DNA from: an uncultured Candidatus Saccharibacteria bacterium
Lineage (GTDB): Bacteria > Patescibacteriota > Minisyncoccia > Phycocordibacterales > UBA2100
Assembly: GCA_964654205.1 (NCBI GenBank)
Contig: CAZZHR010000002.1
Span: forward strand, 1,800-65,799
DNA: 64,000 nt
Direction of reading: 5' to 3'
This document shows, one piece after another, positions 10,441 through 49,729 of the stretch; the stretch's first letter is position 1; the number at the start of each line of letters is the position of its first letter. Below the pieces are notes generated by a model. The model was not told where the DNA came from. It made no database searches and worked only from the letters and a program-made list of their open reading frames with translations. The position numbers and the translations under genes are program-made.

Positions 10441-11372
10441 TATTCCAGGAGCCCCAGGCGGTATATGTCGAAACTGTTCTCTCCCTCGAACATGTCCGAG
10501 GGATTTGGGAGGAATTTGCGCGGACGCATTATCTCTTCCGTCGCGTCGTTCAGGAGCCTGTGAAAGACCTCGAATTCGTGAGCGCATTTTTGGAAATCGA
10601 TGACGTAGCGCCGCAGCTGAGGCGAGCCATCGATGTTGCGGCTCTTTTTGCACTCGTACACCAGAAAGCGCCGCACTGGTTTTTTATACGAGTGGAGTAC
10701 GGTGTAGTAGTTGAAGAGGGCCTGCATCACGAAAAGCGTCTTTTGGTTCTTCTGCTTGCTAAAAGTATCGACGAACTTGTGGTCAACGATATCGAGCGCG
10801 TCCTTGTCGACTTTGGAGACGACGACGAGGTCGGATATCGCCTTGATGGGAAGGGGGAGTCCCTCGACCTCGGCGGTAGCCACGACTTCGACACCAAGCA
10901 CTTTGTGTTTCGGCGCCTTGTCCAGATAGAAGCTCACTGCCTGCAGGTAATCCCGCTCCATGAGCTCCCGCTTGCGCTTCTTATCGGTGCGAGAGCGCGC
11001 CTTGCCGAAATGTATCTCGAAATCCGGCACATCGCGCAGGTACGCGAGCCCAATATCGATGGCGGCTTCCCTACCGAGATCACCGTAGAAGTGCTGGAGC
11101 GCGACATGCCCCGCGCGGCCGATGACGGATGATGGGTTGGATGGCGTATCGCGGACATTCTCGACGTAGCGTTTGTACCAGGCGAGTTGGTTACGCAGGA
11201 ACGCCATGAGACTCGAGTGGCTCCAATGTGATATCGGCGGCTTCGGCTCCCTTCTCTTTGACCGTCTCACGGGACTCGCCCCATGAGAGACAGCGGCCAG
11301 ATCTCGGGCATCAGAGCGAACGTTGTTGTTCGACTTAAAAACGTGATTTCGACCTCGCCTTGCCTCTCTCAC
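10440..11372 (-). CDS. PD-(D/E)XK nuclease superfamily protein (RecB/Cas4-like nuclease domain); start uncertain
   Basis: N-terminal SHWSHSSLMAFLRNQLAWYKRY resembles the RecB-family nuclease N-terminal motif; D..D/ExK-like AISDLVVVSK...DIVDHKF. The ORF track uses a GTG start at 11372. Confidence 0.5.
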   Translation of the reverse strand: MREARRGRNHVFKSNNNVRSDARDLAAVSHGASPVRRSKRREPKPPISHWSHSSLMAFLRNQLAWYKRYVENVRDTPSNPSSVIGRAGHVALQHFYGDLGREAAIDIGLAYLRDVPDFEIHFGKARSRTDKKRKRELMERDYLQAVSFYLDKAPKHKVLGVEVVATAEVEGLPLPIKAISDLVVVSKVDKDALDIVDHKFVDTFSKQKNQKTLFVMQALFNYYTVLHSYKKPVRRFLVYECKKSRNIDGSPQLRRYVIDFQKCAHEFEVFHRLLNDATEEIMRPRKFLPNPSDMFEGENSFDIYRLGLLE

Positions 11373-38002: not shown

Positions 38003-38572
38003 CTAAGCCAAACCGAAGTCGCGCTTGAGAGAAGCTTCCCCCTCAAGCTCTTGCACGACCATGTATCGCATCTTGTAGCCGATACGCCACTCAGATTTCA
38101 AAAGTGCGACTAAGTCTTCACAATTGTACGGAAACACCCAGACGCTGTCCTGAAGTCGCACGAAACCAAGGTGCCTGAGCATTTCCCGGATGCGATCGCG
38201 CAGTCGACGGTTCTTCTCTGGAATGTCAAAAATAAGCACTCGCCACTTCCCGTCCCATTTTTTCTGATTCCGTGCCTGAAGGTCTGCCACACTTTGCAAC
38301 CTCTCGAGCTCGCGCGCACCGAGCGCTGTCAGGCGCAAGCCCGCTGCCTCCCGCCGAGCATACCCCTTTTCGACGAGTCGCCGGTATGTGCGCCTCATAC
38401 TCTCGCCCTGTCGCGGACCAGGGACTAGTCCGAGTCGCTTCAGACCTTGCACTGCATTTGGAGCCGCAATAGCAATCGCGAGCAGTCCGCCTAATTTGAG
38501 CGTCTCGAGTGCGACCTGTTGAATTTTCTCTTTTCTCGAACGCGATGCACCTCTCTCCTCCAATCGCCCCAT
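38003..38572 (-). CDS. PaaX-family-like transcriptional regulator, paralog 1 (190 aa)
   Basis: GLRLTALGARELERLQ...WDGKWRVLIFDIPEKNRRLRDRIREMLRHLGFVRLQDSVWVFPY parallels PaaX (GLRLTRRAESK..WDGKW) and has a Cas2/VapD-like core. Start set at MGRLEERG by alignment to paralog 2. Confidence 0.55.
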   Translation of the reverse strand: MGRLEERGASRSRKEKIQQVALETLKLGGLLAIAIAAPNAVQGLKRLGLVPGPRQGESMRRTYRRLVEKGYARREAAGLRLTALGARELERLQSVADLQARNQKKWDGKWRVLIFDIPEKNRRLRDRIREMLRHLGFVRLQDSVWVFPYNCEDLVALLKSEWRIGYKMRYMVVQELEGEASLKRDFGLA

Positions 38573-38612
38573 ACACCAAGTATATACGACCGTGGGGTAT
38601 TGGTGTATTGGG
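38567..38612 (-). promoter_or_regulatory. Element B: the same 37-bp inverted-repeat element, overlapping the start codon and -10 region of PaaX-like gene 1
   Basis: cccCATacaccaagtatatacgaccgtggggtattggtgtat; TATACT box 6 nt before the ATG suggests a leaderless transcript. Confidence 0.65.
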
Positions 38613-38746
38613 TAAGATGGAAATGCGGGGGTGTCTGCGACCGTCAGCTCAGCGGTCGATTGCGACAACGCGAAAGCCCCGGCGTATGCCGGGGCTTTGC
38701 GTTCACTTGTTTCCCTCTTTCGAGAGCTTGGAGCGGGCGGCGGCGT

Positions 38747-40069
38747 TTAGGCGCGCGAGATGACGAGACGCGGCGTGCCGTAGGCATCGCGAGTCACCTT
38801 CATCGCATCGCGGGTCATCGAATCGCTAGTCGGAAGCTCGAAGTGATTAGCCTTGACCTCCTGGGTCGTGGCTACCTCTTCTGTCTGCTCCTCTGCTCGA
38901 CTGCGCGAAATCATCGAAGTCGCGAGCGCGAGAGCGCCACCCTTGTAGTAGACGAGGAGGTAGCTACCCGCTATCGCGAGAGCGATGAGGCCAGCCCAGT
39001 ACGCGATGTTCGCGATAGGACCGAGTGTCAGACCCGTGTACGGAATCTGCGTGAGCGAGACGTACGGAGAGACTGGCGCCGCCGGAGCAACGTAGCTCTG
39101 CGTGTGACACGTGTACGTGCCGCCAGGACCGGAGACCGTGAGCGAGTAGACCGTGTTGCCGTAGGCGTAGAGCGAAGTAGAACCATTCGGAGCGACCTGA
39201 CCGACCGACGGCGTGATGTACGCGCTGGTGACAAGTCCCTGCGAACTCCACGTGAGCGTAATCATGCCTGTCGTGTAGTAGCCCTGGCCAATCGTGATGA
39301 CACAGTACGGAGCCTGGGCCTGCGGATAGACAGGGTAGCTCGGGTACACAGGGTAGCTCGGAGCGACATACTGCACTATCGGCTGCGGGTTCGCCTGCGT
39401 GACGGTCGTCACGTTGGTGTTCACGTTGGTGTTCGTGTTCACGTTGCAGCTGTTGTTGACGCAGTTGTTATTCGTCACTGGAGGCTGCGGCGCAGGCGGG
39501 ATGTATACCGGCGGCTGCGGCCTCGGAGGCTGCTGCGGCGGGTAGCTCGGGTACGAGGGGAAGCTCGGGAAGGAAGGCGTCGAGAACTTCGGAGGCACAA
39601 TGCTCATCGGGCTCGAGAACGGCTTGAAGCTGTAGCTTTCGTACTGTCCACACGAATAGCAGTCGTCGAGCGGGTAGGACCAATCATTACCCATGTCGTA
39701 GGACCAGTCACAGGTATAACAGTCGTCGAGCGGGTAGGACCAGTCACTGCCGATGTCGTACGACCAGTCGTTACCCATGTCGTACGACCAGTCGCTACCC
39801 ATGTCGTACGACCAGTCGCTACCCATGTCGTACGACCAGTCGCTACCCATGTCGTACGACCAGTCGCTTCCCATGTCGTAGGACCAATCATTACCCATGT
39901 CGTACGACCAGTCGCTGCCCATGTCGTAGGACCAATCGCTGCCCATGTCGTAGGACCAGTCTTCCCCATCGGCGTGTGCAATCGTGGCAAATGCGCCGAA
40001 AGAAAGCGCTGCCGCAATCGCGACCACTGTGAGACCAAAGAGCAGGTTTCTTATTGATGCATTTGTCAT
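38747..40069 (-). CDS. Secreted or surface protein with about 12 tandem DWSYDMGS octapeptide repeats, a Pro/Tyr-rich linker, an IPYTG motif followed by a TM segment, and a cytoplasmic tail
   Basis: Signal peptide; 24-bp in-frame tandem repeats; PSYPVYP repeats; IPYTG then LTLGPIANIAYWAGLIALAIAGSYLLVYYK. Confidence 0.7.
   Translation of the reverse strand: MTNASIRNLLFGLTVVAIAAALSFGAFATIAHADGEDWSYDMGSDWSYDMGSDWSYDMGNDWSYDMGSDWSYDMGSDWSYDMGSDWSYDMGSDWSYDMGNDWSYDIGSDWSYPLDDCYTCDWSYDMGNDWSYPLDDCYSCGQYESYSFKPFSSPMSIVPPKFSTPSFPSFPSYPSYPPQQPPRPQPPVYIPPAPQPPVTNNNCVNNSCNVNTNTNVNTNVTTVTQANPQPIVQYVAPSYPVYPSYPVYPQAQAPYCVITIGQGYYTTGMITLTWSSQGLVTSAYITPSVGQVAPNGSTSLYAYGNTVYSLTVSGPGGTYTCHTQSYVAPAAPVSPYVSLTQIPYTGLTLGPIANIAYWAGLIALAIAGSYLLVYYKGGALALATSMISRSRAEEQTEEVATTQEVKANHFELPTSDSMTRDAMKVTRDAYGTPRLVISRA
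39626..39961 (-). repeat. 24-bp in-frame tandem repeats encoding DWSYDMGS
   Basis: Period 24 nt, about 12 units with wobble variation; no spacers. Confidence 0.85.
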
Positions 40070-40130
40070 AATTGCATTCGTTTTACTTTTAAGCCGGGCT
40101 AATAAAAGCTAATAATCGCTTTACAAAGCT

Positions 40131-40158
40131 ATTATATCAGGTATTCGAGGGTTGTCAA
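40131..40158 (-). promoter_or_regulatory. Consensus sigma-70 promoter: TTGACA, 16-nt spacer, TATAAT (minus strand) for 38747-40069
   Basis: Exact hexamers in an AT-rich stretch. Confidence 0.65.
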
Positions 40159-40224
40159 GTACCTCTGAAAGAGGTGGAGAGCGGCCGCGAGACCGCTCTC
40201 CCAGTTCGTCGGACTCCCTTGGAC

Positions 40225-40635
40225 TCACGAAGACGGCTGCGGGCTGACCGGCCTGCTCTTGCAGGTGTTGTCGGGGTGGAGCCAGCCATACTGCCCCGCG
40301 TGCGGCGAGTTCGCCGGTGCCATGCAGCGGCCGTTGGGCAAAGCTGTCGGGCGCGTCGGATCCGCGACAGGCGGCGGCACGTAGGCATAGCCCGGGACAC
40401 GTGCGAGCGGCAAAGCGCAGATGCCAGGCCGGTAGGCATGCGGCCGCACCTTGTAACGCTCGTACGCGTACTTCGGCTTATAGCGCCGCGGGGGCACATA
40501 CCGCCGCGGCTTGCAGCTGCGATGATGGAAGCCGAACTCGGGGCCACAGTAACCGGCCAGAGCAACCGGAGCCGAGAACATGGTACTTCCGAGCGCCGCG
40601 GCAGCCGCCGCAGCTATCAGAGCCAACTTCTTCAT
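40225..40635 (-). CDS. Secreted basic Pro/Tyr/Arg-rich protein with conserved C-terminal Cys motif domain, paralog A
   Basis: Signal peptide MKKLALIAAAAAAALGSTMFSAPVALA; C-terminus LPNGRCMAPANSPHAGQYGWLHPDNTCKSRP is shared with 40840-41493; RBS GGAGG. Confidence 0.65.
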   Translation of the reverse strand: MKKLALIAAAAAAALGSTMFSAPVALAGYCGPEFGFHHRSCKPRRYVPPRRYKPKYAYERYKVRPHAYRPGICALPLARVPGYAYVPPPVADPTRPTALPNGRCMAPANSPHAGQYGWLHPDNTCKSRPVSPQPSS

Positions 40636-40771
40636 GGTGGAGGTCCTCCGTTGAAACGATCGCGAAGCCGGGCGATGAGGCGTCAGCCTCGATATCATGA
40701 ACACCCAGATTCTTGCCGCGCATTAATTCACTCTTGAGCGGCACTGTCAAGTAGTACGCCATATTGATTAT

Positions 40772-40812
40772 GAAGAAAAGCTTAAGGGGGGCAGAGCAAG
40801 CTCTGTCCCCCC
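40772..40812 (-). terminator. Intrinsic terminator of paralog B gene
   Basis: GGGGGGCAGAGCaaGCTCTGTCCCCCC, a 12-bp stem, followed by a T-rich tract on the minus strand. Confidence 0.8.
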
Positions 40813-40839
40813 TTTGTGAACGCAACCGGCGTTCGATCG

Positions 40840-41493
40840 TCAGTAGTAGGCGTAACGCACCGCCGCAGCAGCCGGCGGCCTTCCCTTGCAGGTGCCATCC
40901 GGATGGATGAAGCCCATCTGCCCAGCGTGCGGCGAATTCGCCGGCGCCATGCAGCGCCCGTTCGGGAGCGGTGCCGCGGCATTGACGCCGCAGCCACGCG
41001 CACCGCACGTCGGCGCCATCGCACGCGGACCGCAGTTGACGCAGTTCACACGCGGGCGCGAGTCGGAGCGGATGATGTTCGTGTTGGGCGGGTTCGGAAC
41101 GACGATATTGATCGGCCGTTCCAGAACCGCCTTCGCGATTTCCGCCGCCTGCTGACGTGCAGCTGCCGTCTCGGTCGCCGCGTTCAGCACGCGGACCGTG
41201 TCGTTGGACTGCCGCACGGCGGCGTCCGACTTCCGGATGTCGAGATCGGTGCGAACGACTTCCGTGCAGAGGTCGTTGGTGCAGCGCTCGTAGTTGGCAC
41301 TGCCGACCATCGTGTTCACCACGAAGTAGCCGCCGAGGCCGAGGCCGACGACGACAACGAGCGTGATGAGCAGGTTGAAGAGCGGCGTGCTGTCGGAATC
41401 CTGGAGCGGCACCCACCTGTCCTGGCGGGCTGAAGCTCGCTCCTCTCCAGTCTCGGTGTTGAAGTAACCGGTAGTGCGACGACGTCCGAACAT
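40840..41493 (-). CDS. Membrane-anchored protein with the same C-terminal Cys motif domain, paralog B
   Basis: Signal-anchor LFNLLITLVVVVGLGLGGYFVV; C-terminus LPNGRCMAPANSPHAGQMGFIHPDGTCKGRP; RBS AGAAGGAGAA. Confidence 0.65.
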   Translation of the reverse strand: MFGRRRTTGYFNTETGEERASARQDRWVPLQDSDSTPLFNLLITLVVVVGLGLGGYFVVNTMVGSANYERCTNDLCTEVVRTDLDIRKSDAAVRQSNDTVRVLNAATETAAARQQAAEIAKAVLERPINIVVPNPPNTNIIRSDSRPRVNCVNCGPRAMAPTCGARGCGVNAAAPLPNGRCMAPANSPHAGQMGFIHPDGTCKGRPPAAAAVRYAYY

Positions 41494-41590
41494 GGCGTTC
41501 TCCTTCTGAGTTGCCTAGTTGCTATGGGTTGCGTTTGGAACTCGAGGCAGAAATCGTGGCATTGCTGCCTCGAATTCCACTCGTAGTATC

Positions 41591-41618
41591 ATTATAACAA
41601 ATACAATACGTTTGTCAA
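41591..41618 (-). promoter_or_regulatory. Consensus sigma-70 promoter: TTGACA, 16-nt spacer, TATAAT (minus strand), with a roughly 100-nt structured leader
   Basis: Leader contains the hairpin GGAATTCGAGGCAG...CTGCCTCGAGTTCC (14 bp, one mismatch). Confidence 0.65.
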
Positions 41619-41642
41619 GTATAAAATTTGGCTCAATAGAGC

Positions 41643-41676
41643 CAAAAGACTGATGCCCCGCATTTTCACGCGGGGC
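41643..41676 (-). terminator. Intrinsic terminator of the 41707-42384 gene
   Basis: GCCCCGCattttcacGCGGGGC followed by a T-run on the minus strand. Confidence 0.65.
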
Positions 41677-41706
41677 ACCTTTCATGAGCTTATCCGACTC
41701 CGGAAC

Positions 41707-42384
41707 CTACGTCGGCTGAGGCACGAGCGCCGCAGGCGGAGCACCAGCTGCCGCCTGAGCGTTGACCCGCAGCTGGTCTGCTGCGAGGCTAATCAGACGC
41801 GCCTCGTCGATGGCGGGAATGTCCGGCTCGACGTATCCATCGGGAGCCACGTCGAGAAACACTGTCTCTTGCAGCGGACCGATTCGCCGGAGCCCCCGCT
41901 CGTAGAACGGAAGCAGCGGTCCGAGGCCGTAGCTCTGCTGGGCGGCTGGGTCCATTTGCACGTTGATGAGCCCTGCATCGGCGATTCGCTGAAGCAGAAA
42001 CACGTCCACGTACGCATACGCCGTCAGCATGATCAGGATTTGCAGCGCGTTTGAGGTTTGCAGCACAATCCAGATATCAGCGCCGCCGAAGCTCATCTGG
42101 GCGATGACCGCAAGCGACGTGAGCGAGAGGCTCCACAGCGCGACCGTCGACGTCTTCTTGTCGATGGAATTGAGCGTGGGACTCGGCTTCACGAAGATTG
42201 CGAGCGTGTTGGAGACGAGGTAGGTCACCCAGACCGTCGTGCCGAAGTTGATCAGCACGGAGGCCCAGTACACGACGCTTTGCGCCTGCGCGAATGCCGG
42301 AATCGCAAAGTACGAGAGCGGCGCCCACAGGGCGACGAGCAAACCGGACACAATCGAGACGATTTTGACAATAACGCTTGTCAT
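41707..42384 (-). CDS. Polytopic membrane protein (4 TM) with soluble C-terminal tail
   Basis: Hydrophobic helices; no recognisable domain; TTGACA-17-TATACA promoter at 42453-42481. Confidence 0.55.
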   Translation of the reverse strand: MTSVIVKIVSIVSGLLVALWAPLSYFAIPAFAQAQSVVYWASVLINFGTTVWVTYLVSNTLAIFVKPSPTLNSIDKKTSTVALWSLSLTSLAVIAQMSFGGADIWIVLQTSNALQILIMLTAYAYVDVFLLQRIADAGLINVQMDPAAQQSYGLGPLLPFYERGLRRIGPLQETVFLDVAPDGYVEPDIPAIDEARLISLAADQLRVNAQAAAGAPPAALVPQPT

Positions 42385-42477
42385 CGAGTTCTCCTGCCGA
42401 GTCTTGTGTTGCGTTGGATTCGGAGCCCAGCATCATGCCGGGAACTCTTCTATGTATACATCAAAACGCGCGCCCTG

Positions 42478-42744
42478 TCAAGTGTGGTCTGTTCCTCTCC
42501 TCTCCGTCTTTTCGATGTCTTGAATTATCTTCAAACCTTTCTCCTGAATGTCGGCTATTGCCGCTGCTTCAGTATTCTGCTTCTGAAGGGCAGCAAAGTA
42601 CACATTGTTGAGTATTCTGCCCTGAAGCTCATCTGGAAGCTTTTCGAATTCTTCTGCCACAAGCTTCTGAGCAGCCGCCTGATCACCCTTTGATAAAAGT
42701 TCGTGGAGTCTGTCGTATAGCTGTCCGAGATTGTCTTCGGTCAT
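42478..42744 (-). CDS. Small helical cytoplasmic protein (88 aa)
   Basis: Low-GC ORF with balanced composition, immediately downstream of the 697-aa gene. Confidence 0.45.
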   Translation of the reverse strand: MTEDNLGQLYDRLHELLSKGDQAAAQKLVAEEFEKLPDELQGRILNNVYFAALQKQNTEAAAIADIQEKGLKIIQDIEKTERRGTDHT

Positions 42745-42754
42745 GCAGAGGGTG

Positions 42755-44848
42755 TTAGTTGTTAAATGCGCCGCTCGCCATAAGTTTCTTTCGCTCCTGC
42801 TTCAATTTTTCTGAGAAGACTGCACTCAAGATTCCGGCAAACCAACCAAACAGCGACTGCCTCTTTTCGGCGTCAGACTCACGGTCTGCGAAAAATGCAT
42901 CAGCTCGTTCGTCTGGCGTTGCGTCCGCCCATTTTTTTCCCATCTTATTTTCCAGTGACACTTGAAAAGTCTCATCCTTGGCTTTTAATTTCTTAATATC
43001 CTCATCGAGTGCCGTATTTAGGTTCTTTGTATTCGTTTCGAACTCACCGAACGTGGCTTCCCCGCGCTCGCCCAGAGCTGGTATGGGCTTCTTACCATAA
43101 GCTTCCTGGACGATACGGGCTCGGAATACGCTGTCATTGGAGAGTGTGCCTGCGAGAACTTTTCCTATTTCAATCCTATTGTGCGCCAAGGAGTTGATTG
43201 CATTGTTCGAGCGAATCGTGCTGTCCCGCAACAGTACGCGCCTGAAAAAGCCGGGTTTGCGAATGTTTCGCGCTGTTCTTGCGTCAAGCATGGACCAATT
43301 GAGGTCTTCCGGCCCGACTCCTATGAGACCCGTGAAGTGCCTGGTGCGTTCCTTGAGTTTCGCATAGCTTGCGTTCATTCGAATATCGAGGTTCGATCTG
43401 TGCGAGAGTACAATTGCCCTCACGTCGTCGGAGCTGGCAAGCGCAAATGTGTACGACAGCGCAGTTTTCATAGCCTCGAGTCTACGAGTTGGATTCAGGT
43501 TTGTCGCGAGAACAGCAAAAGCTTTGTCGTTGGCAATCATGAACTCGACGTCAGCCGCCGTGAGTCCATCGCGCACCTCATCAAGCAGGCGCATGCGATG
43601 ATCGAACTCTTTGAGGAGCTCCTGTAGCTCCGCATAGTCGTCCTCTTCCATCGTAGACGCGTCTTGCATAGAAGCCATGTGCCGCACACTGAGCCCTTCT
43701 GGGCCGTGCGCTTTGACGTATTCGCCGAAAAGCTCCTGCTTCTTCTTGTCCTTCAGGATGACATCCATTGTCGAACCCTGATTCGTATATGTTATCGATT
43801 GCGCCCGCACGAGCGGCAAGGCTGAATATCTGCGTTTTACGTGCTTCGGGACGACGCCGACCACCCTTCCCTTTTTCGGCAATGGTTGGGGCATAGCGCC
43901 ACGACCACTCTTCTTTCCGCTCCCATTCTCTGAATCGTCGCCCCCATCACCGCCGTCACCGCCGCTTGGCGGTTCCGGACCGTCCGACTTCTCCGTCCCA
44001 TTCCTGGACTCGTTTTTGGCTTTCCGGTCACGCAGCATCTGTATTTGTTCCGAAGTGTACAGTTTCCCAGGTGTATCTGGATGGTAATAGTAGCGCCCGC
44101 CCCAAACGCCCGCGAGATGCTCAAATTTGGTAAGGTCGAGATCCTTATTTCTCTCCGCGAGCTTCTTTAAAAGCTCCTCAACCTCCTTTTGCTTCGCCGG
44201 ATCGTTGGCGTTGTCTGCGAAGCCACCGTCGTTGGTAGCGTTACCGTCTAACTCCGAGGCCGATTCTTTTCCTTTGCTGCTCGCCTCATACACTTGAAGC
44301 GCTTCACTGATGCCTTTTATTTCGATAGGTTTCGTTGCTGCACCGACGTAATCCTCCAGTCGCTTGAAATGTTTATCACCGATTTTTGCCTTTACCGCCT
44401 CGAGTCGCGCATGAATATTTTTCTTTGCCTCTTCGAGCTGTTCTGGTTTAGCATATTCGCTGCTCGCGCTAACCTCCTCGGTCACAGCATTAACTCCCTC
44501 CAGCTCAGCAATCTCTGCGTTGGACACACGAACAAGTTCCATCTGAGGTACGTCATCTCTCAATGCATCCCCCATCTCTGTCCTTATAATCTGATCCTCT
44601 TCCGCTTCGTTCGGCTTCCGTTTGGTACCATCCATCTCAACGATAAGAAATCCGCTCGCCCCCGCCTCGTACTTCAATTTAGACGTTCGCGCTTCAGCAG
44701 AAGCTTCATGCCGCCGTGAATCTGGTGGCGCATCCGTCTTGGGCTCAAACGAGGACGAACTTTGGTCTGGGAGACTAATGATGCTGTCGTCTTCGACAGG
44801 TTTTTTACGACGCTCGAGTGCGCGCTTCGCCCGCTCTTCAAATGCCAT
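42755..44848 (-). CDS. Large hypothetical cytoplasmic protein (697 aa); low GC; no recognisable domain
   Basis: Long intact ORF at about 45-50% GC in a 60% GC genome; acidic/basic low-complexity linkers (GGDGGDGGDD). Confidence 0.6.
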   Translation of the reverse strand: MAFEERAKRALERRKKPVEDDSIISLPDQSSSSFEPKTDAPPDSRRHEASAEARTSKLKYEAGASGFLIVEMDGTKRKPNEAEEDQIIRTEMGDALRDDVPQMELVRVSNAEIAELEGVNAVTEEVSASSEYAKPEQLEEAKKNIHARLEAVKAKIGDKHFKRLEDYVGAATKPIEIKGISEALQVYEASSKGKESASELDGNATNDGGFADNANDPAKQKEVEELLKKLAERNKDLDLTKFEHLAGVWGGRYYYHPDTPGKLYTSEQIQMLRDRKAKNESRNGTEKSDGPEPPSGGDGGDGGDDSENGSGKKSGRGAMPQPLPKKGRVVGVVPKHVKRRYSALPLVRAQSITYTNQGSTMDVILKDKKKQELFGEYVKAHGPEGLSVRHMASMQDASTMEEDDYAELQELLKEFDHRMRLLDEVRDGLTAADVEFMIANDKAFAVLATNLNPTRRLEAMKTALSYTFALASSDDVRAIVLSHRSNLDIRMNASYAKLKERTRHFTGLIGVGPEDLNWSMLDARTARNIRKPGFFRRVLLRDSTIRSNNAINSLAHNRIEIGKVLAGTLSNDSVFRARIVQEAYGKKPIPALGERGEATFGEFETNTKNLNTALDEDIKKLKAKDETFQVSLENKMGKKWADATPDERADAFFADRESDAEKRQSLFGWFAGILSAVFSEKLKQERKKLMASGAFNN

Positions 44849-44896
44849 GCGTGAATTTTATCACGATGTAACGCCATTATTTCAATGTACGTGCAT

Positions 44897-44927
44897 AGAA
44901 AAAGGGCGAGCCGAAGCTCGCCCTTTC
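44897..44927 (-). terminator. Intrinsic terminator
   Basis: aaaaaGGGCGAGCcgaaGCTCGCCCtttcc. Confidence 0.8.
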
Positions 44928-44949
44928 CGTCGCACTAGGGCGACAAAGA

Positions 44950-45774
44950 TCAGGTCTTGGCACCGATGGAGATGCCTTTCCCGTTGTAAGCCGGGTTGCC
45001 CTTGGCAGCTTCCGCAGCAGCGGCGGCGGCGATCTTCTGTCGCTCCTCCATGTCTTCCATGAAGAGGCGTTCGAAGAACTTGTCGTAGCCTGTCGCGTCC
45101 TGTTCGAGGAGCTGTGTCTTGCCGCCGATCAGGCGGCACGACTTGCCGTTGACATCGCGCACGATGACGACGGCGCCCTCAGGGATACGCCAGAAGTCGA
45201 AGTTGACCGGGGAGTACGGAAGTCCACGGATGTTCTTGCCGTGGACACTCCCGATCTTCTCGGCCGCAGCCGTGCCGAAATCCGCTTTCTCTTCGCGGCC
45301 TTCGGCGATCTTGAACGCGCCGGACTTCTTGTCGAAGTTGTACGAGCCGTGAGGCTTCACTTCGCCCTTGCTCGCGATGTCCATGTAGTCGCCCATCATG
45401 CCCTGCGGACCGAACTGGAAGCCAGTCCGAATGAGCACGATCCAGTCGTTGCCATCCTTGTGGGAGGCGAGGACCTTGCGGGTCTTGCCGTCGCCGATGT
45501 CCTGATCGATCGCGCTCGCGCGGATGATCTTGTTGCGCTGGTCGAACAGCGGGCGATCGGTCAGCAGTGCCGGGACGACTGATGCGCCCTTGCTGAGCTT
45601 CCCGTTGCGTCCGATGCCGCCGACCACCACGGACGGCAGCGCGATTTTCGCGACGGAATCCGGCAACAGGTCAGACCTGATACCGGTGGTCAGACCCTGA
45701 CCGCGGGGCATGAAGAAGTACAAGTTGGCGTCCTTCGCGGTGCCAACCTGGTGTTCAGCGGACTGACTGCGCAT
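44950..45774 (-). CDS. Hypothetical protein (274 aa)
   Basis: Intact ORF with high GC3; flanked by intrinsic terminators; no signal peptide; no assignable domain. Confidence 0.55.
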   Translation of the reverse strand: MRSQSAEHQVGTAKDANLYFFMPRGQGLTTGIRSDLLPDSVAKIALPSVVVGGIGRNGKLSKGASVVPALLTDRPLFDQRNKIIRASAIDQDIGDGKTRKVLASHKDGNDWIVLIRTGFQFGPQGMMGDYMDIASKGEVKPHGSYNFDKKSGAFKIAEGREEKADFGTAAAEKIGSVHGKNIRGLPYSPVNFDFWRIPEGAVVIVRDVNGKSCRLIGGKTQLLEQDATGYDKFFERLFMEDMEERQKIAAAAAAEAAKGNPAYNGKGISIGAKT

Positions 45775-46610: not shown

Positions 46611-47306
46611 CTAGTGCGCGAGGATGCGGCGGATTTGTTCGAGGTTGGAGGCGACGGAATTGTCGGGCTTGTTGAGTCGATGAATATCCACCGCGCGGGC
46701 GACTTCTACAGGCCGCGCCACATCGACTACGCGTCCGACGTCGACTGCGTGCCCGATAGTGACCGCTGATGCGATGTTGCCCGCGCTGCCTATGCTGACC
46801 GCACGACCAATGTCGACCGCATGAGCGATGTCGACGGCGTGCGCAATAGTCACGGCATTGCCGATGACCACGGGGTAACCGAGACTCACCGGACGGCCTA
46901 CGATGACGGGGTACCCAATCGTGACCGGACGTCCGACTGTAACAGGACGTCCGACCGTCACCGGCCTCCCGACGTTCACGGGACGACCGACATTGACCGG
47001 ACGAGCCACCGAAACAGGCCTCGCGACGGTAGCGGGACGCGCGACAGATACCGGATGAGCCACGCGGACAGGTTCGGCGACGATGGCACTGCGAGTGACG
47101 ACTATCTCATCGCATGCGCATTCGTCGGCAAAGACCCACGCGAGCGGCGTGAGCAGCGCACCGATGAGAATAGCGATGGCGTACTTCTGCTCCATAGTGA
47201 GATGCACGGGACGGACGTTCACGATTCGGGCGCGTGCTGCGGCAACCGTGTCGCGCACGAGCGACAGGAGCCTCACGGGTACGAATTTCTTTGCAAGTGT
47301 TTCCAT
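46611..47306 (-). CDS. N-terminally anchored protein made of about 25 tandem hexapeptide repeats (xRPVxV / xHAVDI)
   Basis: TM anchor MEQKYAIAILIGALLTPLAWVFA; 18-bp in-frame tandem repeats; start ATG 4 nt after the sortase stop. Confidence 0.6.
   Translation of the reverse strand: METLAKKFVPVRLLSLVRDTVAAARARIVNVRPVHLTMEQKYAIAILIGALLTPLAWVFADECACDEIVVTRSAIVAEPVRVAHPVSVARPATVARPVSVARPVNVGRPVNVGRPVTVGRPVTVGRPVTIGYPVIVGRPVSLGYPVVIGNAVTIAHAVDIAHAVDIGRAVSIGSAGNIASAVTIGHAVDVGRVVDVARPVEVARAVDIHRLNKPDNSVASNLEQIRRILAH
46665..47096 (-). repeat. 18-bp in-frame tandem repeats (hexapeptide)
   Basis: Period 18 nt, coding, no spacers. Confidence 0.8.
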
Positions 47307-47310
47307 ACGT

Positions 47311-47976
47311 TTAGTACACCCCGACAAACGACGCCTCGACGACAAAACGAGCGTCTTTGGATGTGAGCGTGTCGCAGGTGACGAGCGTGATACGAGTGCC
47401 GAGTTCCTTGCGCATGTCGATGCGCGTGTCGGATGCATCGGCCTTCTTTACCGACGTGACCGAATAGAGGTAGTTCTTGCCAGCGGCCTGGAGCGTGATG
47501 GTGTCGCCCGCCTCGAGTTCTTTCACGCGATTAAAAGCCTTGTACATCGGGTTGCGCACGACCGGAAGATTGGACGAGTGCGCAAAGAGAAGGACGTTGC
47601 CACCTTTCTCGCCGAGCTTAGCGGAATCGATGTAGCGCGCAGGACCATTTTTGAGAAGCTCGTCGAGCTCAGCGATGTCGCGCGTATCGGGATTCTGAAT
47701 CGCGAGATCGAGTTCAATGTCGGCGATGATGATTCTTTCTGGCTCTACGACGACTTCGTTGCCGAGCTCCGGCAGGTGCGACAACGCGACCGTATTGCTC
47801 GAGAGCGTCTCGGCGACAGTTTCGTAATCTCTGTCAGTACCATCGATGTAGTCGGGCACGAAGCCGACGGAACTAGCCGCCGAGAGCGAGAGGAAGAAAA
47901 TCACCACCGCGGCACTCACAAAGACGCTCTTGGGAGCGCGATTCTGTGGCTCTACTGAGCGGTGTAGCTGACTCAT
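47311..47976 (-). CDS. Sortase-family transpeptidase
   Basis: N-terminal TM anchor; His in LLFAHSS; TLxTC active site RITLVTCDT; Arg in ARFVVEASF. Confidence 0.75.
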   Translation of the reverse strand: MSQLHRSVEPQNRAPKSVFVSAAVVIFFLSLSAASSVGFVPDYIDGTDRDYETVAETLSSNTVALSHLPELGNEVVVEPERIIIADIELDLAIQNPDTRDIAELDELLKNGPARYIDSAKLGEKGGNVLLFAHSSNLPVVRNPMYKAFNRVKELEAGDTITLQAAGKNYLYSVTSVKKADASDTRIDMRKELGTRITLVTCDTLTSKDARFVVEASFVGVY

Positions 47977-49130: not shown

Positions 49131-49159
49131 GTTATAGCGAACGTATAGCATTTACATCA
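49131..49159 (-). promoter_or_regulatory. Element C, downstream copy: TATAGCGAA-N3-ATAGCAT, overlapping the stop of PaaX-like gene 2
   Basis: gttatagcgaacgtatagcatttaca; same orientation as 49736-49764. Confidence 0.65.
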
Positions 49160-49729
49160 TTTCCCTTTCAGACCGAAATGTTTGCGTAAATCCTCATCAC
49201 CCTCTATCTCGTCAACAATCATATAGCGGACTGCCCTTCCGATGTGTAGATCAGCCTTCACGAGTGAAACAAAATCTTCAACATCGTAGGGGAAAACCCA
49301 TACGCTATCCTGCAACATAAGAAAGCCGATGTGTCGGAGAGTCCTACGGATCTTATCCCTATCTGCTTTCCGATGTTCGGGGATATCAAAGATGAGCACA
49401 CGCCACCTGCCGTCCCAACGACGCGGCACGTCCCCTCGCATCAATGCCTCATGTAGATCCAGCTCTTTCCGGCCTCGGTCAGTCAATCGAAGCCCTTTCT
49501 CCGTGCTACGAATGTGTCCAGAGGCGATTAATCGCTTTCGCGCTCGATTAATCGTTGAGGAATCTTGCGGAGACCTCTCAAGGAGTCCCAATTTGTACAA
49601 ACTTTGGACCGCATTCGGTGCTGCCAAAACAAATCCTGTGATTGCAGCCACTTTGACCGCCGCGAGTAATGCGAACTTGATATCTCTTTTCCGCTTACGG
49701 ATCCTCCCTCGTATTTCTACCTCGCCCAT
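49157..49729 (-). CDS. PaaX-family-like transcriptional regulator, paralog 2 (190 aa)
   Basis: APNAVQ..GLRLTDRGRKELDLHE..RWDGRWRVLIFDIPEHRKADRDKIRRTLRHIGFLMLQDSVWVFPY; collinear with 38003-38572. Confidence 0.55.
   Translation of the reverse strand: MGEVEIRGRIRKRKRDIKFALLAAVKVAAITGFVLAAPNAVQSLYKLGLLERSPQDSSTINRARKRLIASGHIRSTEKGLRLTDRGRKELDLHEALMRGDVPRRWDGRWRVLIFDIPEHRKADRDKIRRTLRHIGFLMLQDSVWVFPYDVEDFVSLVKADLHIGRAVRYMIVDEIEGDEDLRKHFGLKGK

Follow-up and report, generated by a model that had tools for sequence, protein, structure and literature searches.

The stretch of DNA considered here (the window) is 64 kb of contig CAZZHR010000002.1 from an uncultured Candidatus Saccharibacteria bacterium, and belongs to the chromosomal core, carrying gyrB, pheT, dnaE, thrS, rpoD, dnaG and smc along with other housekeeping genes. 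On its minus strand lie two adjacent genes, ORF B and ORF A (ORF, open reading frame), which encode otherwise different proteins ending in nearly identical modules with two Cys residues. This resemblance, noticed in a first-pass annotation of the window, is confirmed by BLASTP, and the shared module is the subject of what follows. ORF B is transcribed first and ORF A second. The first-pass annotation had described the paralogue with the strong promoter as the downstream one; it is ORF B, the upstream member of the pair in the direction of transcription. A version of ORF A of 159 amino acids (aa) with a GTG start, found in the ORF list, is an upstream extension of the 136-aa frame, which starts MKKL. 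The features of the two genes are as follows.

40840..41493, minus strand: ORF B, a 217-aa protein with a predicted type-II (N-in) membrane anchor (ORF list, hydropathy, AlphaFold and homologues)
41317..41382, minus strand: transmembrane (TM) segment of ORF B, residues ~38-59, LFNLLITLVVVVGLGLGGYFVV (Kyte-Doolittle maximum 2.5; predicted helix)
40876..41028, minus strand: head of ORF B, codons 156-206, RAMAPTCGARGCGVNAAAP and then the motif (alignment to the related genome L001)
40876..40968, minus strand: two-Cys module of ORF B, codons 176-206, LPNGRCMAPANSPHAGQMGFIHPDGTCKGRP (BLASTP; short strands by AlphaFold)
40225..40635, minus strand: ORF A, a 136-aa secreted protein made up of signal peptide, basic Pro/Tyr/Arg-rich region and motif (homologues in L001 and P0005)
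40555-40635, minus strand: signal peptide of ORF A, codons 1-27, Sec-type
40249..40341, minus strand: two-Cys module of ORF A, codons 99-129, LPNGRCMAPANSPHAGQYGWLHPDNTCKSRP (BLASTP and nucleotide alignment)

ORF B is predicted to be a bitopic membrane protein. Its one strongly hydrophobic segment, with the hydropathy maximum at residues 41-59, follows a cytoplasmic N-terminus of ~37 aa and is succeeded by a long helix, a Pro-rich linker and a Cys-rich C-terminal head. AlphaFold places helices at residues 36-68, including the TM helix, and 78-125, the latter being the long helix, and leaves the Pro-rich linker disordered. The ectodomain holds eight Cys, six of them within the last 70 residues. 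Homologues of ORF B are found in P0002, P0004, P0006, P0008 and P0009. ORF A, by contrast in design, appears to be a Sec-secreted and very basic protein. Its signal peptide, MKKLALIAAAAAAALGSTMFSAPVALA, would be cleaved between ALA and GY, and the mature product of 109 aa has an isoelectric point (pI) of 10.0, contains 21 Pro, 10 Tyr, 12 Arg and 5 Cys, and is probably disordered. The 136-aa product is on record from the Logan assembly only, the NCBI record having ORF B without ORF A; as the exact product is recorded from that one assembly, ORF A is probably uncalled, or called from another start, in the deposited annotation. Two antisense ORFs on the plus strand (40174-40737 and 40816-41433) were considered as the real genes, as was a noncoding repeat. 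Both readings were rejected on three grounds: the substitutions between the copies fall mainly at synonymous positions of the minus-strand frame; the minus-strand ORFs come with Shine-Dalgarno sequences, promoters and terminators and with a signal peptide or TM segment; and the peptide is kept across lineages at 42-60% nucleotide (nt) identity.

The module common to the two proteins is a C-terminal stretch of 31 residues, LPNGRCMAPANSPHAGQxGxxHPDxTCKxRP. The copies are identical at 26 of these 31 positions (84%; BLASTP E=1e-17 for the pair), and outside the module BLASTP finds no other credible similarity between ORF A and ORF B. At the nucleotide level the first-pass figure of ~85% identity proves too high, the values found being 75-78%: 77% over 101 nt, and 78.5% (73/93) over the 31 core codons. 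Twelve of the 20 differences in these codons are at third positions and ten are synonymous, and the similarity breaks off abruptly at both module edges, where the flanking codons are unrelated. The largely synonymous character of the differences, together with the unrelated flanks, argues that the module is under purifying selection at the level of the peptide and is not the product of a fresh duplication. There is no third copy of the motif in the window. Amongst the homologues the consensus is LP[NDE]GRCxAPxxSP[HK]AGQxG[WFY][LI][HW]xxxxC, with a Pro a few residues further on. The R-C pair, a P, the A-G-Q triplet, a G, the second C and the late Pro are invariant across lineages; the two Cys in particular are invariant, with a fixed 20-residue spacing, in 5/5 distinct sequences. 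In all six motif-bearing proteins the module lies 2-15 residues from the C-terminus, and it is located downstream of the signal peptide in ORF A or of the TM segment in ORF B.

The first-pass annotation recognised no domain in the module and recommended a profile search, and the databases agree with it. No Pfam family is matched by ORF A, ORF B, P0002, P0004, P0005 or P0006 at E<=0.1 to 1, no NCBIfam family by ORF A and ORF B at E<=0.1, and no PDB sequence by the module profile. A word-indexed search returned the two proteins of the window and one homologue, P0002, only. An exhaustive HMMER profile search over 1.84 billion cluster representatives gave nine proteins at E<=1e-3. Two of the nine, P0001 and P0003, are ORF B and ORF A themselves. 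P0002 is a B-type homologue in L001, P0004 and P0006 are B-type proteins with the motif, and P0005 is an A-type protein with the motif from a second lineage. P0008 and P0009 have B-type N-termini joined to other C-termini, and P0007 is a partial match with a repeated half-motif; these last three have weak Pfam matches only (E 0.016-0.62), each below the gathering score of the family. The 90% clusters of the matches have 1-4 members each. The module is thereby present in ~6 proteins, apparently from three lineages.

Scanning GTDB species representatives, JGI metagenomes and IMG/VR brought in further contigs of these lineages but of no others. Apart from one Saccharibacteria genome, the contigs come from ENA, JGI and Logan metagenome assemblies. 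Peptide patterns specific to the window found nothing in the metagenome scan, and degenerate patterns found only the second lineage again (L010 and L011). The scan of viral contigs in IMG/VR gave no match and no sign of a phage origin. P0006 is a singleton in the search, which did not extend the third lineage, and the gene downstream of it is incomplete. P0007 (163 aa) comes from L012, a 928-bp Logan contig of run SRR18067531 with no genomic context. It consists of three ~52-aa repeats, each with CGTDxWENGF[VI]HPDxTCxGR and a Cys spacing of C-x15-C, and has in common with the module only the second half, GF[IV]HPDxTCxGR. Its Pfam matches number two, both far below threshold. With a half-motif on so short and context-free a contig, P0007 is too weak to be called a homologue of the module. 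Taken as a whole, the searches point to an undescribed mini-domain family of very narrow distribution.

How the two copies came to be so similar can be approached by comparing lineages. The first-pass annotation had named a sequencing or assembly duplication as one of the outcomes that would undo its reading. This is not what is found: over 39839-45133 the window is matched at 100% identity by a Logan assembly made from one run only (SRR15237804), 20 of the 93 nt set the copies apart, and other genomes have the pair as well. When the modules are compared over 33 codons, A and B of the window share 26/33 aa and 75% of nt, and A and B of the second lineage 19/33 aa and 60%. Window against second lineage, in any combination, gives 19-21/33 aa and 58-60%, and any copy against P0006 gives 13-15/33 aa and 42-46%. 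There is no orthology signal, B-B and A-A pairs being no closer than B-A pairs. The window pair, at 26/33 against 13-21/33 in every other comparison of distinct genes, is clearly the more alike, and this points to gene conversion, or to replacement of the module, in the lineage of the window. Any such conversion would be old, since nine of the 26 codons for identical residues already differ synonymously. The recent duplication or conversion of the first-pass annotation does not stand for this reason, and also because the pair is present in the second lineage. There the modules are only 60% identical in nt, which argues that the B+A arrangement is itself old and has been kept by selection on the peptide. 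Within the second lineage (L004, L005, L006, L007 and L011) there is one A-gene polymorphism, at L007 5848. It is nonsynonymous and falls within the motif loop, GRC[A/P]AP, at a position that varies between lineages too (M, T, A, K).

Comparison with the related genome L001 reveals a mosaic. The genes on either side show 76-84% nt identity between the window and L001. Across the pair, identity is 72% in the promoter and leader of ORF B and 42% in ORF B codons 1-154, where BLASTP detects no similarity, against 96% in the ORF B head, 90% in the B-A intergenic region (20 differences in 203 nt) and 99% in ORF A codons 1-89 (three differences, one of them synonymous). The N-terminus of ORF B in the window resembles P0009 (35% identity, E=6e-20) and that of the L001 protein resembles P0008 (28% identity, E=7e-16). 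One near-identical head and ORF A segment is in this way attached to two types of stalk, and recombination among related populations that occur together is the reading preferred here. A chimeric contig end in L001 is a less likely alternative, raised by the fact that this contig breaks off within ORF A, just at the start of the repeated motif. L005 and L007 differ in a comparable manner, being 99.9% identical across B, A and the repeat gene that follows them and ~93% identical in adjacent housekeeping genes, which represents a strain-level mosaic of like kind.

Some further observations concern the same comparison. The ORF A homologue of L001 has an 84-nt (28-aa) insertion at ~11110-11195, ARYHPPATYGYSAPAYYPPTAHAYVPPP, flanked by the direct repeat AYVPPP, and the Pro/Tyr-rich region therefore varies in length. 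Between window 40363-40839 and L001, divergence is higher in the intergenic region than at the synonymous sites of ORF A. This uneven divergence may reflect either recombination tracts of different age or constraint at the nucleotide level, for example through the antisense ORF at 40174-40737 on the plus strand. In addition, window ~41500-44260 and L001 6170-9850 cannot be aligned by blastn, in contrast to their 76-84% identical flanks. The unalignable stretch spans the C-terminal half of a 697/822-aa protein, an 88-aa protein, a multi-TM protein (225 aa in the window, 460 aa in L001) and the ORF B N-terminus. The L001 versions of these genes resemble L009, and the whole looks like a hypervariable, cassette-like segment.

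The signals for expression of the two genes are listed below.

41591..41618, minus strand: promoter of ORF B matching the sigma-70 consensus, the -10 preceded by TG (consensus scan)
41536..41579, minus strand: 5' leader hairpin of ORF B, 15+3 bp, arms 41536-41554 and 41561-41579 (folding)
41500..41505, minus strand: Shine-Dalgarno sequence of ORF B, AAGGAG, 6 nt before the ATG (read from sequence)
40786..40812, minus strand: GC-rich terminator-like hairpin after ORF B, then a T-rich stretch (fold z=-3.9)
40722..40750, minus strand: putative weaker promoter of ORF A, TTGACA-17-ATTAAT, TG-extended (read from sequence)
40176..40201, minus strand: terminator-like hairpin after ORF A (folding)

The exact TTGACA-16-TATAAT promoter that the first-pass annotation reported is indeed present upstream of ORF B, at 41618..41591 on the minus strand. 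A pattern search of the 64 kb found two exact consensus promoters where none is expected by chance. Both flank the B-A pair, the second driving the gene directly downstream of ORF A. Promoters resembling TTGACA-17-TATAAT stand upstream of four further B-type genes (L001, L007, L008 and L009). The five B-type promoters have a further element in common, a run of T and then TGGCT(C/T), placed 21-31 nt before the main -35. The window copy of this element (41627-41646, minus strand) makes a small hairpin, TTTGGCTC-TATT-GAGCCAAA, and also offers TTGGCT-16-TATACT as a second promoter-like site of lesser strength. The element may serve as a tandem promoter or be UP-like, or it may represent the end of the upstream terminator.

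The leader of ORF B is ~95 nt long and its hairpin, which begins ~9 nt past the predicted transcription start, is more stable than shuffled sequences (z=-4.4 to -5.4). The first-pass annotation had seen a leader of ~100 nt with a 14-bp hairpin; the hairpin is real, albeit of 15+3 bp. The suggestion that conservation of the leader structure be examined has been followed up, and the hairpin is found at the equivalent position in 5/5 B-type genes (the window, L001, L007, L008 and L009), with unrelated sequences. In the other four it begins 6-17 nt after the predicted start, with z of -2.6 to -5.3. The hairpin has no U-tract, being followed by AAACGCAACCC, and is not reported by the terminator scan; a role as intrinsic terminator or attenuator is not supported on these grounds. 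Rfam assigns no family at the locus, the one match being a chance microRNA hit of 21.8 bits against a gathering score of 81. Given that position and structure are conserved and sequence is not, and that U-tract and Rfam match are missing, a 5' stem-loop which stabilises the mRNA is more likely than a riboswitch, attenuator or ligand sensor. The idea of a regulatory RNA structure thus holds as far as the structure is concerned, with the stabilising form favoured. Stable 5' stem-loops protect mRNA in S-layer gene leaders and in ompA. The conserved hairpin and the consensus promoter would most likely yield a stable and abundant ORF B mRNA, and the strength of the signals suggests that ORF B itself is abundant.

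The terminator-like hairpin after ORF B is identical in L001. The putative ORF A promoter is conserved there as well and is not reported by the consensus scan; a GGAGG stands upstream of ORF A at 40645-40649. Since terminator-like hairpins follow both genes and ORF A has a weaker promoter of its own, ORF B and ORF A appear to be separate transcription units.

The pair forms part of a surface gene cluster, in the order CARDB protein, sortase, two to three small membrane or unknown proteins, a 700-820-aa protein, an 88-aa protein, a multi-TM protein, ORF B, ORF A and a repeat protein. The sortase gene lies six genes upstream of the pair and is a conserved member of the cluster, and the module is found in this sortase-linked setting in every case. 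The last gene encodes an acidic repeat protein of 440-500 aa ending in [LS][ST]Q-IPYTG and a TM segment. The order recurs in L001 and in the second lineage (L004, L005, L006, L007 and L011), where the B-A pair is found within an equivalent sortase-linked cluster. The cluster is flanked by thrS in the window and by a gene for a class II aminoacyl-tRNA synthetase of 414 aa in the second lineage. Pfam confirmation of dnaE is limited to the window, the corresponding gene of the second lineage running off the contig. Amongst the cluster neighbours only Sortase, CARDB and PaaX/Cas2-like matches exceed the Pfam threshold, and there is otherwise no credible match. L009 has a B gene without the motif and no A gene, and its repeat protein has GGYFAGD instead of DWSY repeats. 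The repeat gene of the window and its promoter are located as follows.

40131-40158, minus strand: promoter of the repeat-protein gene, the second perfect sigma-70 promoter (consensus scan)
38747..40069, minus strand: acidic DWSYDMG-repeat surface protein, 440 aa, with C-terminal LTQIPYTGL and TM segment (ORF list; orthologues in L007, L011 and L009)

This protein contains ~13 tandem DWSYDMG[SN] repeats with a 24-nt period, a Pro/Gln-rich linker and an Asn/Thr-rich stretch, and ends in VSLTQIPYTGL, a TM segment and a cytoplasmic tail of ~70 aa. The repeats of its orthologues read DWSYPT in L007 and L011, and GGYFAGD in L009. IPYTG with its TM segment may constitute a variant sortase signal; a literature search for IPYTG as a sortase-type signal found no match. 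Elsewhere in the neighbourhood, PaaX_M/Cas2-like paralogues at 38003-38668 and 49157-49729 (both minus strand; Pfam E ~1e-21) bracket the surface cluster; in L001 no gene corresponding to the 49157-49729 copy is called between gyrB and the CARDB gene. Beside the sortase gene, 46611-47438 (minus strand) encodes a membrane-anchored protein consisting mostly of hexapeptide repeats (PV[ST]V[AG]R and similar), with a weak, sub-threshold Pfam match to the left-handed beta-helix (LbH).

The interpretation proposed here, to which a probability of roughly 0.4 is attached, is that the module is an extracellular docking or binding knob closed by a disulfide. It would stand outside the cytoplasm as a small autonomous domain, its beta-hairpin-like loop closed by the two invariant Cys. 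AlphaFold predicts short strands in the module and scores it best of all parts of the ectodomain, with a predicted local distance difference test (pLDDT) of 67-77. The knob would sit at the tip of a membrane-anchored stalk in ORF B and on a soluble, basic protein in ORF A, and both knobs would engage one common partner. This partner might be a polymer of the envelope, the acidic DWSY-repeat surface protein encoded next to the pair or a host cell surface. The DWSY-repeat protein is plausible in view of charge complementarity, its repeats having a pI of ~4 and ORF A a pI of 10. The knob would have been homogenised between the two genes by old gene conversion in the window's lineage. Head and ORF A segment would move between related genomes by recombination, with the stalk and the upstream genes diverging rapidly.

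A number of points weigh against this interpretation. The confidence of AlphaFold is moderate (mean pLDDT 61-63, from multiple sequence alignments of 6-8 sequences), and when the head model, itself of moderate confidence, was compared with the PDB by Foldseek the best match had E=5.6 and no analogue emerged. The Cys count of mature ORF A is odd (five), and the window genes that were scanned revealed neither a Dsb nor a VKOR gene. The tie to the DWSY-repeat protein rests on three loci. Nor is the A gene universal, since it is missing from L009 and since in L008, where the B protein has the motif, the next gene resembles the repeat protein and not an A-type gene.

Amongst the alternatives, the one that survives best, albeit as an unlikely one, regards the module as a C-terminal sorting or processing tag read by an envelope machine such as the sortase of the cluster. 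It would account for a module that is always found at the extreme C-terminus of otherwise unlike secreted proteins and whose LP[NDE]G start recalls LPXTG, next to a sortase gene that is conserved with it. However, there is no Thr at position 4 (LPNGR, LPDGR, LPEGR) and P0006 dispenses with LPxG (DASSR). Some 28 polar residues follow LPxG, with neither a hydrophobic segment nor a basic tail, and the hydrophobic maxima lie only at the N-terminal signal peptide and the TM segment. NCBIfam, which holds many curated models of C-terminal sorting signals, gave no match, and the neighbouring repeat protein has a far better sortase-type signal in its IPYTG and TM segment.

More doubtful is a Cu or Zn site formed through C-M-x7-H-x3-M-x3-H-x4-C, with no disulfide loop. 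The window copies carry Cys, Met, His, (Met), His and Cys at regular spacing, and the His of SPHAGQ is present in four of the five distinct module sequences, yet the ligands are not conserved as a set. The second His is replaced by Trp in P0004 and P0005 and the first by Lys in P0006, and in the other sequences T, A, P or K takes the place of the Met next to the first Cys. The Cys pair alone is invariant, and the conserved ligands of a Cys2His2-type or Cu mini-site are not found. Furthermore, the proteins are extracytoplasmic, and paired Cys outside the cytoplasm are usually oxidised.

It is very improbable that the module is a signal or antimicrobial peptide with one disulfide, released from ORF A and ORF B with their N-terminal regions serving as pro-regions. 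A conserved two-Cys 30-mer at the C-terminus, behind variable and partly disordered N-terminal regions, would suit such a peptide, as would the signal peptide of ORF A and the strong promoters. However, the cluster has no detected protease, ABC (ATP-binding cassette) exporter, immunity gene or modification gene, and the Pfam scan of its neighbours revealed none of the modification, export and immunity genes that mark ribosomally synthesised and post-translationally modified peptides or bacteriocins. A TM-anchored coiled-coil stalk would be unusual as a precursor, and the conservation is inverted, since it is usually the leader of a peptide precursor that is conserved and the core that varies.

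That the similarity means nothing, being a by-product of gene conversion or a mis-assembly, with the L001 mosaic a chimeric contig end, is scarcely credible: the extra similarity of the window pair does fit conversion, the L001 contig does stop at the motif start and P0002 is known from a single co-assembly only, but an independent single-run assembly reproduces the window locus exactly, half of the copy differences (10/20) are synonymous, the motif is kept in three lineages from several independent samples and assemblies, the high-identity part of L001 has differences of its own (an intergenic region at 90% and the 84-nt insertion in ORF A), and a de Bruijn chimera itself needs near-identical sequence at its junction.

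The disulfide-closed knob is therefore retained as the preferred reading. For episymbionts of the candidate phyla radiation (CPR), or Patescibacteria, the means of host recognition and attachment are largely unknown and surface proteins are mostly unannotated. Combining a hypervariable stalk, a conserved knob and exchange between genomes, the locus is a compact candidate for work on the envelope and on host interaction. It is tempting, if distinctly speculative, to extend the proposal and to see in the stalk cluster and its two-Cys knob a determinant of host attachment and host range in episymbiotic Saccharibacteria. On this view the host envelope would carry a conserved receptor to which the knob binds, soluble ORF A would compete with this binding or bridge it, and the cassette of knob and ORF A would be exchanged between co-occurring species in a gene-specific sweep; this extension is regarded as improbable. 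If the knob does prove to be a binding module, it would represent a new small domain family and provide a handle on envelope organisation or host interaction. If not, it would be a narrow, lineage-specific curiosity of ~6 proteins among the billions searched.

Parallels can be drawn with several known systems. LPXTG sorting signals share with the module a C-terminal position, an LPxG start and a sortase gene in the cluster, but the Thr, the hydrophobic stretch and the charged tail are missing and the module is not a member of this group. The D-region of type IV pilins is likewise a C-terminal two-Cys loop on a surface protein, although in the present case closure of the loop is predicted. Pilins bind receptors through the disulfide-bonded loop of the D-region. 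ORF A and ORF B, however, lack a pilin leader and the N-terminal pilin helix, no homology is detected, and the pattern of variation is reversed, the loop being conserved here and the rest variable. The leader of ORF B recalls those of S-layer genes and the 5' untranslated regions of E. coli ompA and B. subtilis aprE in its consensus promoter and in a stable 5'-proximal hairpin with no U-tract. It differs in having no Rfam family and in coming from a group, the Saccharibacteria, whose RNase biology is uncharacterised. The working analogy is with the SLH, LysM, GW and choline-binding repeats of Gram-positive-type envelopes. There is no sequence or profile similarity to these, and the present module is single-copy and much smaller, at ~31 aa with two Cys in ~6 proteins. 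As with them, nevertheless, a short terminal module is borne by otherwise unrelated extracytoplasmic proteins whose genes have the hallmarks of strongly expressed surface genes. This is not categorically new biology: the setting, that of modular surface proteins, is familiar, and what is new is one small module.

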